A stretch of 64,000 bases of DNA from Myxococcales bacterium (lineage in GTDB: Bacteria; Lernaellota; Lernaellaia; Lernaellales; Lernaellaceae): the NCBI GenBank assembly GCA_012517325.1, contig JAAYVF010000132.1, positions 9,665-73,664 of the forward strand, read 5' to 3'. Both the position numbers and the translations under genes were made by a program. This document shows, in pieces, positions 43,179-50,086 of this stretch. Every line of letters begins with the position of its first letter. The first letter of the stretch is position 1. The notes under the pieces are model-generated. The model searched no databases, was not told the origin of the DNA, and was given only the letters and a program-made list of their open reading frames with translations.

Positions 43179-43763
43179 TTAATTTACTTTGTTTACAATC
43201 CGCAATGGTTCGACGGCGGCAAGACCGCATTGGCGGCCCCAGGCGGCGGCGGATTCGCGCACGGCGGCTTCGGTCCAAAGATGAGCCGTCGCTCGCGGAA
43301 GTTGCCTGAGCGCCATGATTTTTTGTTCAATCGTCGCGGCGATGTCGGAAAACATGTTGGGAACGAACAAGGAACCGGCGGTATCCGCAAGGCCGGTCAT
43401 CGCCGGATCGATATCCATGGCGATTCTACTGACCGCCTTGCCGCCGCGCCCGGCCAAAAAACATCCATCGACCGCCTCGCCAACGATTCGATGATCCGCA
43501 TCCGGGTCGCCGTGCCAATGCGAAAAGACCACATCGGGATCGAACGAAGCGACTGCCGCCGCGATGTTCGCCAGGTCCGACTGAAGAATTTCCGCGATTC
43601 CCAGCGCGCGGCGGATACCCGCTAAAATGTCGGGGGCGCAGTTTTCACAACCGACAATCAGCCAGCGGGTTTGAATGCCGTCCCGCGACAGGCGGGCAAA
43701 GGTTCCCCCGGCGCACAGCACCGCGTCCGTCAGATGAGCCGCGATCAGCAGGGCTTTTTTCAT
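43179..43763 (-). CDS. PIG-L/LmbE family N-acetylglucosaminyl deacetylase-like protein (with a degenerate AHPDDE box)
   Basis: The N-terminus is LLIAAHLTDAVLCAGGT, and HWHGDPDADHR lies mid-protein. The fold-family call is moderate. Confidence 0.5.
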   Translation of the reverse strand: MKKALLIAAHLTDAVLCAGGTFARLSRDGIQTRWLIVGCENCAPDILAGIRRALGIAEILQSDLANIAAAVASFDPDVVFSHWHGDPDADHRIVGEAVDGCFLAGRGGKAVSRIAMDIDPAMTGLADTAGSLFVPNMFSDIAATIEQKIMALRQLPRATAHLWTEAAVRESAAAWGRQCGLAAVEPLRIVNKVN

Positions 43764-43764
43764 T

Positions 43765-44955
43765 TCACCGCCGGAAGGCGGCGACGACCTTGTGGACGGC
43801 GGTCACCACGTCGTCGCGGTCGGCGGCGGTCAGGCCGACGAACAAGGGGAGGCTGATTTCGCGGGCGAAGAAGGTTTCGGCGCCGGGAGTCAGCGCCGGA
43901 TCGTAGCCGAGGCCGCGATAAAACGGATGGCGCGGCACCGGAATGTAGTGCACCTGAACGCCGATCCCCTCGGCGCGCAGCGCCGCGAAGAGCGTCCGCT
44001 TGTCGCAGGTCAGCGCGTCCATATCGAAGAGCAGCGGATAGAGGTGATAGGCGCAGGTGCGTTTTTCGTCGACCGGCAGGAAAGCCACGCCGGGCAGCGC
44101 GGCGAACTCGCGGTCGTACGCGGCGGCGTGCTCGCGCCGGACGCGTAGGAACTCGTCGAGCTTGCCGAGCTGCGACAGGCCGAGCGCGGCCTGAAAATCC
44201 GTCAGCCGGTAGTTGAAGCCGAGAAAGCGCATTTCGTAATGCCAGCCGCCCTCGCGCTCCACCGCCGCCGGGTCCTTCGCGATGCCGTGCGTGCGGAAAC
44301 AACGCAGCCGTTCGGCGTATTCGGGGTTGTCGGTCAGCACCATCCCACCCTCGCCGGTCGTCAGGTGCTTCACCGGATGGAAGCTGAAACAGGCCAGGTG
44401 TCCCCAGCGGCCAGCCGGTTTGCCGCGAAACAGCGCGCCGGGCGCATGGCAGGCGTCCTCGATCACGATCAGCCGCCGGCTTTCGGCCAGGGCCATGATC
44501 TCGTCCAGGTCGGCCGGCAACCCGGCGTAATGGACCGGCAGCACGGCGCGGGTCCGGGTGCCGAGCGCTTTTTTCAGGGAGGCGACCGAAATCAGGCCCG
44601 TGCGCGGATCGACATCGGCGAACGCCGGCCGGGCGCCGACGTAGAGCGCGGCGTTGGCGGTCGCGGCGAAGGTGATGGCGGGAACGACGGCTTCGTCGCC
44701 GGGTCCGAGGCCGGCGGCAAAGCAGGCGGCGTGCAAGGCGGCGGTGCCGTTGGCGAAGGCGACGGCGTGGGCCGCGCCGAAGCGGGCGGCGAAGGCATCC
44801 TCGAAGCGCGCGATCGCCGGCCCCTGGGTCAGCCAATCGCCGGCGAGCACTTCGTGCACGGCGGCGCGGTCGGCCTCGTCGATCGCCTGCCGGCCGTAGG
44901 GAAGAAGTTCACGCCGCACCGGCCGGCCGCCATGGATCGCCAAAGGTTCGTTCAC
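43765..44955 (-). CDS. DegT/DnrJ/EryC1 family PLP-dependent sugar aminotransferase (PseC-like)
   Basis: LPYGRQAIDEADRAAV...LTQGP...FE... resembles the PseC N-terminus. The PLP-lysine region is FSFHPVKHLTTGEGG. Confidence 0.7.
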   Translation of the reverse strand: MNEPLAIHGGRPVRRELLPYGRQAIDEADRAAVHEVLAGDWLTQGPAIARFEDAFAARFGAAHAVAFANGTAALHAACFAAGLGPGDEAVVPAITFAATANAALYVGARPAFADVDPRTGLISVASLKKALGTRTRAVLPVHYAGLPADLDEIMALAESRRLIVIEDACHAPGALFRGKPAGRWGHLACFSFHPVKHLTTGEGGMVLTDNPEYAERLRCFRTHGIAKDPAAVEREGGWHYEMRFLGFNYRLTDFQAALGLSQLGKLDEFLRVRREHAAAYDREFAALPGVAFLPVDEKRTCAYHLYPLLFDMDALTCDKRTLFAALRAEGIGVQVHYIPVPRHPFYRGLGYDPALTPGAETFFAREISLPLFVGLTAADRDDVVTAVHKVVAAFRR

Positions 44956-45031
44956 CGGATTCCTCGCGGTAGAGGTTAGTCGAGACGGACTTCGCGGCGA
45001 GGCGGCGCGACGGAAAATCGGCGCCCGGCGG

Positions 45032-47325: not shown

Positions 47326-48273
47326 TTACGCTTTATCAGTTTCGGCGTCGAATGTCCAGTAAAGCCGTAAATCGTCAAGTGTTTTCCGCCAGGAGATTTC
47401 CGGCCGCCAGCCGGTCGCCTGCCGCAGGTACTCCGCCGAGCCGCGGAGCGCCGGAATGTCGAGCTGCCGCAGCCGATGCGGGTCGACGCGAACTTCAATA
47501 TCCTTGCCGCTCAGCCGGATCAGCTCGGCGAGCAGATCGCCGATTTCGCGGGCCTCGCCGCGGCAGATGTTGAACACCGCGCCCGCCGGCAGCGTTTGCA
47601 ACGCCAGGCGGTAGGCGCGCACCACGTCGCGGACGTCGAGGATGTCGCGCCGGGCTTGCAGGTTGCCGACGTGAATCACCGGCTCCTGCTTGCCCGCGGC
47701 GATCGCGGCGATTTGTTGGGCGAAACTGGACAACGCGAACACCGGCCGCTGCCGGGGGCCGACGTGCGTAAACGGCCGAGCGACGAGGATATCCAACCCG
47801 AAACGCCCCCTGGCGAAACGGGCGTACTCTTCCGCCAGCCATTTGGTCGTGGCGTAAACGTTGACGGGGCGGACGGAGGAATTTTCCGTGAGCGGCAGCC
47901 GCTCGGGTTCCGGAGCGCCGTAAACCTCGGCGGTGCTGATCAGCAGCAAGCGGGCTTGCGGCCGATGCGCCTTGAGCGCGTGCAGCAGGTTCGCCGTGCC
48001 GCCGACGTTCACGGCGATGGCGCGGGTCGGGTCGTCCTCGGCATCGGGGACGAAGGTGACGGCGGCCAGGTGGATCACCGCGTCGACGACCGTTTCGGCC
48101 AGCACGGCGGCGACCGCGCGGGCGTCGGTGACGTCCAGGGCCAGGGATTTTTCAAGCGCCGGGTGGTTCGGCGGTTGGAAGTCGGCGCCGCAGACCCGGT
48201 CGCCTTGCGCCGCGAGATGATCGATCAAGTGTCCGCCGACAAAGCCGCCGGCGCCGGTAATCAGGATTTTCAC
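47326..48273 (-). CDS. rmd: GDP-4-dehydro-6-deoxy-D-mannose reductase (Rmd-like short-chain epimerase/reductase)
   Basis: The GTG start overlaps the gmd stop as GTGA. The Rossmann motif is [15 protein letters not shown], and the catalytic region is VYATTK (YxxxK). It is collinear with P. aeruginosa Rmd. Confidence 0.65.
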
Positions 48274-49250
48274 AGCAAACCGAGCTCCATCCGGCGTTTG
48301 CCTTCCACGAGGTCCGCGTCGACCATCATTTCCACCAGTTCGCGGAAATTCACGCGCGGTTCCCAACCCAGTCGTTCCTTGGCCTTGCTGTAATCGCCGA
48401 CTAGGAAATCGACTTCGGCCGGGCGGTAGTATTGCGGGTCGGTTTCGACGTAATCCTGCCAATCCAACCCGACGCGCTGAAACGCGATTTCGGCCAGTTC
48501 CCGCACCGAATGGGTTTCGCCGGTGGCGATGACGTAATCATCCGGCTCGCCCTGCTGCAACATCAGCCACATGGCGCGGATGTAATCGCCCGCGAAGCCC
48601 CAGTCCCGCTTGGCGTCCAGATTGCCCAGCTTCAGCTTTTCCTGCTTGCCCAGCTTGATCAGCGCCGCCGCCGTGGTCACTTTGCGGGTGACGAATTCCT
48701 GGCCGCGTCGCGGCGATTCGTGATTGAATAAAATGCCCGAGCAGGCAAACAGATCGTAGCTTTCGCGGTAGTTGACCGTGATGAAGTGGCCGTATGCCTT
48801 GGCCACGCCGTATGGGCTGCGCGGGTAGAACGGCGTCGTCTCTTTTTGCGGGATCTCCCGCACCTTGCCGAACATTTCGGAGGAACTGGCTTGATAGAAC
48901 TTGATTTTCGGGTTGACCAGACGGATGGCCTCGAGCATGCGGGTCACGCCGACGCCGGTGAATTCGGCGGTCAGCACCGGCTGATTCCAACTGGTCGGCA
49001 CGAAGCTCATCGCCGCCAGGTTGTAGATTTCGTCCGGCTCCTCCTCCTCGACCAGGCGGATCAGGCTGAGTTGATCGAGCAGATCGCCCTGGGTAATCTG
49101 GAGGCGGTCGCGGATCGGTTCGAGCCGTTCGAATTTTTCCGTGCTGGACCGGCGGACCATGCCGACCACGTGATAGCCTTTTTCCAAAAGAAATTCGGCC
49201 AGATAAGACCCGTCCTGGCCGGTAATTCCGGTGATGAGTGCGCGTTTCAT
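48270..49250 (-). CDS. gmd: GDP-mannose 4,6-dehydratase
   Basis: [26 protein letters not shown] is the canonical Gmd N-terminus. The start was trimmed from the supplied ORF. Confidence 0.88.
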
Positions 49251-49273
49251 CCGCTCGCTTCTCCTTGTGACTT

Positions 49274-50086
49274 TTAATGCATCAGCAACAGGGCGAACAA
49301 TCCCGCCAGCACGCAGTAGACGCCGAACCAATGCAGGCGCCCCCGGCGAATGAAATGCAGCAGGATGTGCAACGAAAGATAGCCGGAAACAAGCGAGACC
49401 ACAAACCCGGTCAATGCCACCGCGGCGAATCCCGGCGGCAGTTCCTCCACCTTCAAGGCCTGCAACAACACCGCGCCGAGAATGACCGGAATCGCCAAGA
49501 GGAAACTGAACCGCCCCGCCGCTTCCCGGTCGAGTCCGGACAGTAGGCCGGCAACGATGGTGCTGCCGCTGCGGCTGACCCCGGGGGTGATCGCCGCGGC
49601 TTGGGCCAGGCCGACGATCAAGGCCTGCCGCCAGCCGAGTTTTTCCAGCGGCACGTCATTGCTCCGCGCCAGCCGCGAAAGGAAGAGCAGGCTGGCGGTA
49701 ATGAAAAAAGCAAATCCGACCATCCGCGGCGAATTGAAAGCCGCCTCGAACCAATCGTTGAACAACACGCCCGCGAGGCCCGCCGGCAAGGTGCCGATGC
49801 CCAACCAGATCAACAGCCGGAAGTGCGGATCGTTCCGCCAGGCGCCGGCCGGCCCGAGCCGCACCGGCGAACGCAAGGAAAGAACCAGCGCCCCTAAATC
49901 CCGCCGGAAAAAGAGCAGGATCGCCATCACCGTGCCGAGGTGCAGAATGGTGTCCAGAAAAAGGGAATTTTCCTGGAGGTGAAAGAGGGATTGCGCGATC
50001 ACCAGATGGCCGGAGGAACTGACCGGCAGAAACTCGGTGATACCCTGCAAAAGCCCAAGCAACGCCGCTTGTAAAATGGAGATCAT
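49274..50086 (-). CDS. uppP: Undecaprenyl-diphosphate phosphatase
   Basis: [25 protein letters not shown] is the BacA/UppP signature. It has 8 TM helices. Confidence 0.88.

Follow-up and report, generated by a model that had tools for sequence, protein, structure and literature searches.

We analysed a 64,000-nucleotide stretch of contig JAAYVF010000132.1 (assembly GCA_012517325.1, deposited as 'Myxococcales bacterium'), hereafter the window, and within it a block of eight co-directional minus-strand genes lying between positions 50509 and 43179. A previous sequence-only reading had seen here a possible flagellar or surface glycosylation island, in which genes for GDP-D-rhamnose and an amino sugar are interleaved with those of a FapA protein and a pentapeptide-repeat protein. 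The interpretation that we favour, with a probability of about 60%, is that three independent modules have been juxtaposed: a receiver-only response regulator (RR) with uppP, gmd and rmd; fapA with the gene of the pentapeptide-repeat protein (PRP); and a pseC-family aminotransferase gene (degT) with a gene of the PIG-L family. An envelope glycan would be the likeliest destination of the sugars, and the order of the genes would be a trait of the lineage. The enzymes are members of well-known families, and it is their arrangement that constitutes a lineage-specific juxtaposition.

Layout and conservation of the block

The window has a GC content of about 60%, a richness at which long spurious open reading frames (ORFs) are common. 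Genes were picked by third-position GC, by matches to Pfam and NCBIfam models, and by the gene calls on public contigs carrying identical proteins. In the direction of transcription, the block reads as follows (lengths in amino acids, aa):

50087-50509, minus strand: RR, receiver-only response regulator, 140 aa, first gene of the block (PF00072, 6e-27)
49274-50086, minus strand: uppP/bacA, undecaprenyl-diphosphate phosphatase, 270 aa (PF02673, 1.8e-77)
48270-49250, minus strand: gmd, GDP-mannose 4,6-dehydratase, 326 aa (TIGR01472, full-length, 456.7 bits, cutoff 415)
47326-48273, minus strand: rmd-like gene, GDP-4-keto-6-deoxy-D-mannose reductase, 315 aa, GTG start (solved Rmd relatives and motifs)
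45741-47270, minus strand: fapA, FapA/DUF342 family protein, 509 aa, TTG start (PF20250, 4e-44; PF03961, 1.5e-52)
45032-45769, minus strand: PRP, pentapeptide-repeat protein, 245 aa (PF00805, 3.9e-33 over five stretches)
43765-44955, minus strand: degT, PseC-family sugar aminotransferase, 396 aa (PF01041, 5e-117; TIGR03588, 452.6 bits, cutoff 423.5)
43179-43763, minus strand: degenerate PIG-L/LmbE-family gene, 194 aa (PF02585, 36.4 bits, cutoff 28.2, two short stretches)

The six genes that had been named before, from gmd to the PIG-L gene, were each found on the minus strand with family matches, and the block proved larger than first described, with RR and uppP at its 5' end. The NCBIfam UppP models score uppP at 198-202 bits, slightly under their cutoffs. 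The start of gmd is the ATG at 49250, according to the database gene call and the orthologues, while position 49331 is the TTG of the longest ORF. Successive genes from RR to PIG-L are spaced by 0, 23, -4, 55, -29, 76 and 1 nt. Both overlaps that had been reported were read directly in the sequence: the TGA of gmd and the GTG start of rmd overlap as GTGA, and fapA and the PRP gene share exactly 29 nt. The aminotransferase and deacetylase genes and a flagellar hook operon do lie on the same strand as gmd, but the terms 'upstream' and 'downstream' had followed plus-strand coordinates; degT and PIG-L are transcriptionally downstream of gmd and rmd, and the hook operon is upstream.

Conservation was read around fapA in eight further genomes (loci L005, L007, L009 and L011-L015, about 20 kb each), which with the window makes nine. 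The FapA of the window is identical to NLH51138.1, and its close relatives, at 51-67% identity, include those of Candidatus (Ca.) Lernaella stagnicola and of the metagenome-assembled genome (MAG) fen_1099, the founding genome of the candidate phylum Lernaellota (PMC9324843). Since these two are the nearest kin with some 20 kb of shared gene order, the window genome probably belongs to Lernaellota, despite its 'Myxococcales bacterium' label.

The order uppP-gmd-rmd-fapA-PRP is present in all nine genomes, with uppP directly upstream of gmd in each of them and RR in front in eight (7/8 relatives). The overlap between fapA and the PRP gene is likewise kept in 9/9 genomes, at 14-29 nt, and the GTGA overlap of gmd and rmd in 5/9. 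In loci L005 and L007, collinearity with the window extends over about 20 kb and takes in a radical SAM gene, capBC, a hydrolase and a glutaredoxin gene; as it reaches far past the block, both carry little weight as evidence of conservation. In L009 and L012-L015, on the other hand, the flanks differ on both sides and the block is still kept, which indicates that it persists as its neighbours change. The fixed order RR-uppP-gmd-rmd-fapA-PRP could serve as a marker of the Lernaella/fen_1099 group.

The degT-PIG-L pair follows the PRP gene in seven of the nine genomes. In the other two, L013 and L014, a PAS/GAF histidine kinase gene takes its place, followed in L013 by serA and purA. In six genomes, the PRP gene is immediately followed by a small HTH_17 gene on the opposite strand (L007, 12288-12566; L009, 12380-12574; the same position in L011, L012, L013 and L015), which is absent at that position from the window, L005 and L014. 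The distance between the PRP gene and degT is 239-406 nt in the relatives that have degT, the 76 nt of the window being the exception. With the opposite-strand gene and this distance between PRP and degT, most relatives would not transcribe the two sugar groups together. Both are therefore neighbours of the fapA-PRP pair and not parts of one transcription unit. The single unit that had been proposed is thus not supported, and the absence of degT-PIG-L from two genomes points the same way. The HTH_17 gene is itself of the excisionase type, convergent with the PRP gene, and may regulate a neighbouring unit.

A simpler explanation would deny the adjacency any meaning: the genes would be unrelated neighbours, held in order only by the common descent of close genomes. 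This would fit the extended collinearity of L005 and L007, which takes in unrelated genes, and also the scan of the block for sigma-70 promoters and terminators, whose counts were not above the shuffled expectation. We nevertheless consider it unlikely, given that the block persists in five genomes in which both flanks have changed, that protein identities of 50-60% reflect deep divergence, and that the overlaps and very short gaps within the modules are conserved.

A predicted GDP-6-deoxyhexose and its possible acceptor

The first sugar module begins its chemistry with Gmd, which would convert GDP-mannose into GDP-4-keto-6-deoxy-D-mannose. The protein passes TIGR01472 and is 78-86% identical to its orthologues in the relatives. 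The product of the next gene carries the motifs GxxGxxG (GAGGFVG) and YxxxK (YATTK) of the short-chain dehydrogenase/reductase (SDR) superfamily. Its top two matches among solved structures, both end to end, are 2pk3 (5.6e-57) and 6x3b (1.2e-52), which are the two solved GDP-6-deoxy-4-hexulose reductases (Rmd); the third structure follows at 1e-42. The pair is thus predicted to make a GDP-6-deoxyhexose. Because gmd lies directly upstream of a reductase closest to Rmd, the most likely product, by reduction at C4, would be GDP-D-rhamnose, in agreement with the sequence-only reading; the C4 epimer GDP-6-deoxy-D-talose would be less likely. The GDP-D-rhamnose pathways of Pseudomonas aeruginosa (common polysaccharide antigen) and Aneurinibacillus thermoaerophilus (S-layer glycan) likewise have gmd directly followed by an Rmd homologue. 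In contrast to these, the genes described here have no nearby glycosyltransferases (such as WbpX/Y/Z) and no Wzm/Wzt ABC transporter, and uppP and the receiver protein stand upstream instead.

UppP would regenerate undecaprenyl phosphate, and the product of RR-uppP-gmd-rmd would most likely feed a lipid-linked envelope polysaccharide, the glycosyltransferases and exporter being encoded elsewhere. In L009, Wza-like, KpsE/PCP-like and Wzx-like genes directly follow the PIG-L gene, without a recognised glycosyltransferase. ORFs of matching sizes occupy the same positions in L012 and L015, which suggests that these genomes carry the same set. It is the presence of uppP before gmd in every genome, together with these export-type genes in relatives, that makes us lean to a lipid-linked envelope polymer. 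An envelope polysaccharide is accordingly a more likely acceptor than flagellin, to which the earlier interpretation had given preference.

All sizeable genes of the window were either assigned to a family or shown to match none, and no glycosyltransferase, Wzx/Wzy flippase or polymerase, ABC exporter, flagellin or Maf (DUF115) gene was recognised in the 64 kb; neither was a glycosyltransferase or DUF115 gene in the scanned flanks of L005, L007 and L009. Known flagellin glycosylation islands adjoin flagellin genes and carry glycosyltransferases or Maf proteins. The pse-maf loci of Campylobacter and Helicobacter and the fgt island of Pseudomonas syringae (rhamnose and 4-amino-4,6-dideoxyhexose) resemble the window in combining a 6-deoxyhexose, here a predicted one, with an amino sugar, here of the PseC type, and differ from it in having the flagellin, glycosyltransferase or Maf genes that it lacks among its recognised genes. 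The label of a 'flagellar glycosylation island', being unsupported, is thereby removed from what are ordinary nucleotide-sugar genes of an uncultured lineage.

The flagellar hook operon that had been invoked as a link is indeed present:

58428-62732, minus strand: hook operon with FliK, FlgD, a small flagellar protein and FlgE

FlgE lies 9.1 kb from position 49331, and the operon begins about 8 kb from the block. Between the two are genes for rplM, rpsI, a redoxin, a radical SAM enzyme, an LPG-synthase-like protein, a nitroreductase, a rubrerythrin, a ferredoxin-thioredoxin reductase, a glutaredoxin and a hydrolase. No FlgE, FlgD or FliK homologue was found in the flanks of the relatives that were read, where the L007 flank stops just short of the expected place. 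With ribosomal and redox genes in between and no hook genes in the flanks read from the relatives, the operon does not support a link of the block to flagella.

The second module, fapA-PRP, would supply two cytoplasmic beta-helical proteins made in fixed proportion through their conserved start/stop overlap. The TTG start of fapA is preceded by a GGGAGGA Shine-Dalgarno sequence, and the AlphaFold 2 (AF2) model of FapA has a confident beta-solenoid at residues 215-365 with an inserted helical hairpin at 369-447. A fold search with this model against the PDB gave no match at E<=0.001, the hairpin resembling generic coiled coils only. The PRP evolves fast, at 35-41% identity to its orthologues. 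These nevertheless align over their full length directly after fapA in 9/9 genomes, with a conserved N-terminus and an acidic tail. No curated subfamily in NCBIfam (HetL, Qnr, MfpA) reaches its cutoff. Separately, a PADLOC scan of FapA, PRP, RR and PIG-L was without a match, which led us to set aside a role in defence.

For Vibrio, PMC6877527 describes FapA as a flagellar assembly factor, citing Park et al. 2016 and 2019; apart from these Vibrio studies, we found almost nothing in the literature on DUF342/FapA. The FapA of V. vulnificus and that of V. cholerae (VCA1085) share with the window protein the FapA_N and FapA beta-solenoid Pfam domains. They differ in context, as the window gene overlaps a pentapeptide-repeat gene and sits after gmd-rmd, and a flagellar role is known only in Vibrio. 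Four FapA homologues outside the lineage were examined: the first comes straight after sigD within a che operon, the second has a receiver protein behind it, near PilZ and an FlhB-like gene, and the remaining two have neighbours unrelated to motility. As none of the four has a PRP gene or sugar genes beside it, the FapA-PRP pairing looks lineage-specific. The tie between FapA and flagella that had been put forward thus has a counterpart in the motility loci of some other bacteria; in this lineage, fapA is outside any flagellar operon in the window, L005, L007 and L009. By analogy with its family, the pair may act as a scaffold or as a regulator with a link to motility or to cell polarity, and may have its own promoter in the rmd-fapA spacer. 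The conserved pair gives the poorly understood DUF342 family a candidate partner.

The spacer contains one such candidate element:

47295-47302, minus strand: GCCGATAA, candidate sigma-28-type -10 box, exact consensus match, 24 nt before the fapA TTG

Versions of GCCGATAA with one mismatch stand at the same place in L005, L007 and L013. The motif occurs seven times in the window against 1.8 expected; five of the seven copies are inside genes and one lies under a good sigma-70 promoter. No TAAA -35 element was found at N15 spacing from the copy before fapA. Given the missing -35 and the mostly intragenic copies, we regard a sigma-28 promoter of fapA as a weak lead. A bolder idea built on it, namely that FapA and PRP are late flagellar-regulon proteins made from a sigma-28-type promoter and couple D-rhamnose glycan synthesis to the flagellar pole or filament, appears quite improbable to us; if true, it would be a previously undescribed link from a polar scaffold to nucleotide-sugar supply.

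Several observations weigh against three independent modules serving the envelope. The invariable position of fapA-PRP beside gmd-rmd in nine genomes could reflect real functional coupling. FapA relatives occur in motility loci elsewhere, and a box like GCCGATAA lies 23-30 nt before fapA in 4/9 genomes. Flagellins are known to carry D-rhamnose and, in other cases, pseudaminic acid as glycans. The window likewise has no recognised glycosyltransferase or exporter for an envelope polymer, and as about 20 kb was read from each relative, the remainder of any pathway would lie beyond view. Furthermore, all nine genomes come from a single lineage, and their shared order may in part be inherited and not selected.

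Much of this would suit the idea that the block works as one unit to glycosylate flagellin or some other surface filament, in which gmd/rmd and pseC supply the sugars and FapA/PRP provide the tie to flagellar assembly. In its favour are the gmd-rmd/fapA-PRP linkage, the two motility contexts of FapA relatives (after sigD in the che operon, and by the receiver protein near the PilZ and FlhB-like genes), the role of FapA in Vibrio (Park et al. 2016 and 2019, as cited in PMC6877527), the box before fapA, the presence of a PseC-family enzyme with a Pse-associated PIG-L, and the hook operon in the window. Ca. Lernaella is also reported to encode flagella (PMC9324843), which counts for the same idea; for Ca. 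Alcyoniella australis, the same paper reports none. We nonetheless judge it improbable. Among the genes of the 64 kb, none was recognised as encoding a glycosyltransferase, a Maf protein or flagellin; the hook operon is parted from the block and missing from the relatives' flanks that were read. In every genome, gmd is preceded by uppP, whose product is a lipid-carrier enzyme that direct O-glycosylation of flagellin does not need, and in three relatives the block is followed by Wza/Wzx-type export genes. The two genomes without pseC-PIG-L keep the rest, and half of the outside FapA contexts are unrelated to motility.

The PseC-family aminotransferase and its PIG-L neighbour

The third module consists of two genes of kinds found inside pseudaminic-acid clusters, of which the PseC is intact and conserved and the PIG-L decayed. 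DegT scores 452.6 bits against the curated PseC equivalog TIGR03588 (cutoff 423.5), and its Lernaella orthologue 468.2 bits. It has the SFHPVK motif of the pyridoxal-phosphate (PLP) lysine and is 65-68% conserved among the orthologues of the lineage. Among solved structures, its matches are ArnB (1.6e-75), the perosamine synthetase 3bn1 (3.9e-64) and the PseC of H. pylori, 2fn6 (1.8e-59). Since ArnB and the perosamine synthetase come slightly ahead of the PseC structure, the grouping was tested by genomic context. DegT shares 53% identity with the L045 PseC, which adjoins PseB in a complete pse cluster, and it is 38-54% identical to PseB-adjacent aminotransferases as against 33% to a GMD-adjacent one (L037). 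The description of the enzyme as PseC-like is borne out by both the equivalog score and this comparison, and the alternative that the sequence-only reading had itself raised, a grouping with the perosamine synthetases of O-antigen loci, was not found.

Homologues of PseB, PseG/H, PseI and the formyltransferase were absent at E<=1e-5 from the 64-kb window and from the roughly 20 kb of L005, L007, L009 and L011-L015, PseF not having been queried. Unlike the pseudaminic-acid clusters (pseB-pseC-pseH-pseG-pseI-pseF, or the variant in L045), with which it shares an aminotransferase passing the PseC equivalog, the window holds only the pseC and PIG-L genes. These would be two genes detached from the pseudaminic-acid pathway. 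A protein-database search with the PseI of L045 listed at least 120 matches, all of them nearer relatives from other phyla, and says nothing on this lineage.

The proximity of degT to gmd allows for another route, in which GDP-4-keto-6-deoxy-D-mannose is a branch point from which Rmd makes GDP-D-rhamnose and DegT makes GDP-perosamine, as in O-antigen loci. DegT is encoded about 3.3 kb from gmd on the same strand, no PseB is in reach in the seven genomes with DegT, and 3bn1 is a slightly better match than 2fn6. This branch point is nevertheless very doubtful: the window DegT and its Lernaella orthologue pass the PseC equivalog, the PseB-adjacent aminotransferases are the closer ones, the constant partner of DegT is a PIG-L of the pse-cluster subfamily, degT is a separate transcription unit in most relatives, and the two genomes without it keep gmd-rmd.

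That the PIG-L subfamily belongs to pseudaminic-acid clusters outside this lineage follows from a metagenome contig scan with the five canonical PIG-L orthologues of the lineage, which yielded 80 loci (L018-L097) at 42-54% identity. One of them, L045, was assigned gene by gene with NCBIfam and reads PseB, PseC, two unassigned genes, a PseG/PseH fusion, a formyltransferase, PIG-L and PseI; its PseB, PseC, PseG and PseI score above the curated cutoffs. With the proteins of L045 as probes, at least one Pse gene was found in 32 of the 34 PIG-L loci of 8 kb or more, and PseI in 29 of them. Some loci run PseB-PseC-PIG-L (e.g. L059), the same adjacency of PseC and PIG-L as in the window. The PIG-L of the lineage is 44-52% identical to that of L045, which sits between the formyltransferase and PseI.

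In this wider set, formyltransferase, PIG-L and PseI are adjacent in that order in about 27 of the 80 loci (L018-L097; in L045 at 9282-11752). The adjacency of formyltransferase and PIG-L suggests N-acyl remodelling, by a deacetylate-then-formylate route to N-formyl pseudaminic acids. A literature search on pseudaminic acid with a formyltransferase and a deacetylase found no paper describing that route.

In the window itself, the PIG-L gene has decayed. The five orthologues of the lineage are 55-69% identical to one another and the window copy is 32-34% identical to them, while its neighbours in the window are 51-86% identical to their own orthologues. The degenerate AHPDDE box that had been noted before reads AHLTDA, the first Asp being replaced by Thr; in addition, the PDNxFD block is deleted, HPRS has become HLWT, and there are four deletions. 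The first Asp of AHPDDE is the general base in characterised PIG-L/LmbE members. Nine other members, five of the lineage and four taken from the pse clusters of other phyla, are invariant at 61 columns; the window copy has a different residue or a deletion at 35 of these, compared with 0-5 in leave-one-out controls. The ORF is intact, and the protein is probably catalytically inactive, judging from these replacements, in further contrast to the pseudaminic-acid clusters. The pair is a clear example of one gene of a conserved couple decaying (PIG-L) while its neighbour (pseC) stays intact.

Other features of the window

At the start of the window, a phage-type integrase gene at 620-1954 (plus strand) ends 44 nt before a tRNA-Pro(CGG) gene at 1998-2072 (minus strand), and the site may be the edge of an integrated element extending past the window start. 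A c-di-GMP-I-GGC riboswitch aptamer lies at 3659-3738 (minus strand; RF03167, 66.6 bits against a gathering score of 59). The gene directly downstream of it, at 2112-3650 (minus strand), encodes 512 aa with only a sub-threshold DUF4185 match.

Next to the block, a predicted lipoprotein of 245 aa with the lipobox LAC and an Asp-rich N-terminus is encoded at 42402-43139 (minus strand). Neither Pfam nor NCBIfam gives a match for it, the relatives have no homologue and the protein has no database record; it sits where L005 and L007 have three or four genes including multihaem cytochromes. Four genes at 30958-37406 (minus strand) encode a HEAT-repeat protein (894 aa), a TPR protein (248 aa) and two proteins without a family match (498 and 490 aa). 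CapB-like (Mur_ligase_M) and CapC genes, followed by that of a conserved 381-aa protein without a family match, occupy 37725-40509 (plus strand) and form a set for the synthesis of poly-gamma-glutamate, such as has been reported in Ca. Lernaella (PMC9324843).

Radical SAM genes of the B12-binding type number three in the window, including a tandem pair (12643-16097 and 54776-56257, both minus strand). Two more radical SAM genes, at 18713-19711 and 41507-42376, bring this family to an unusual density for 64 kb.

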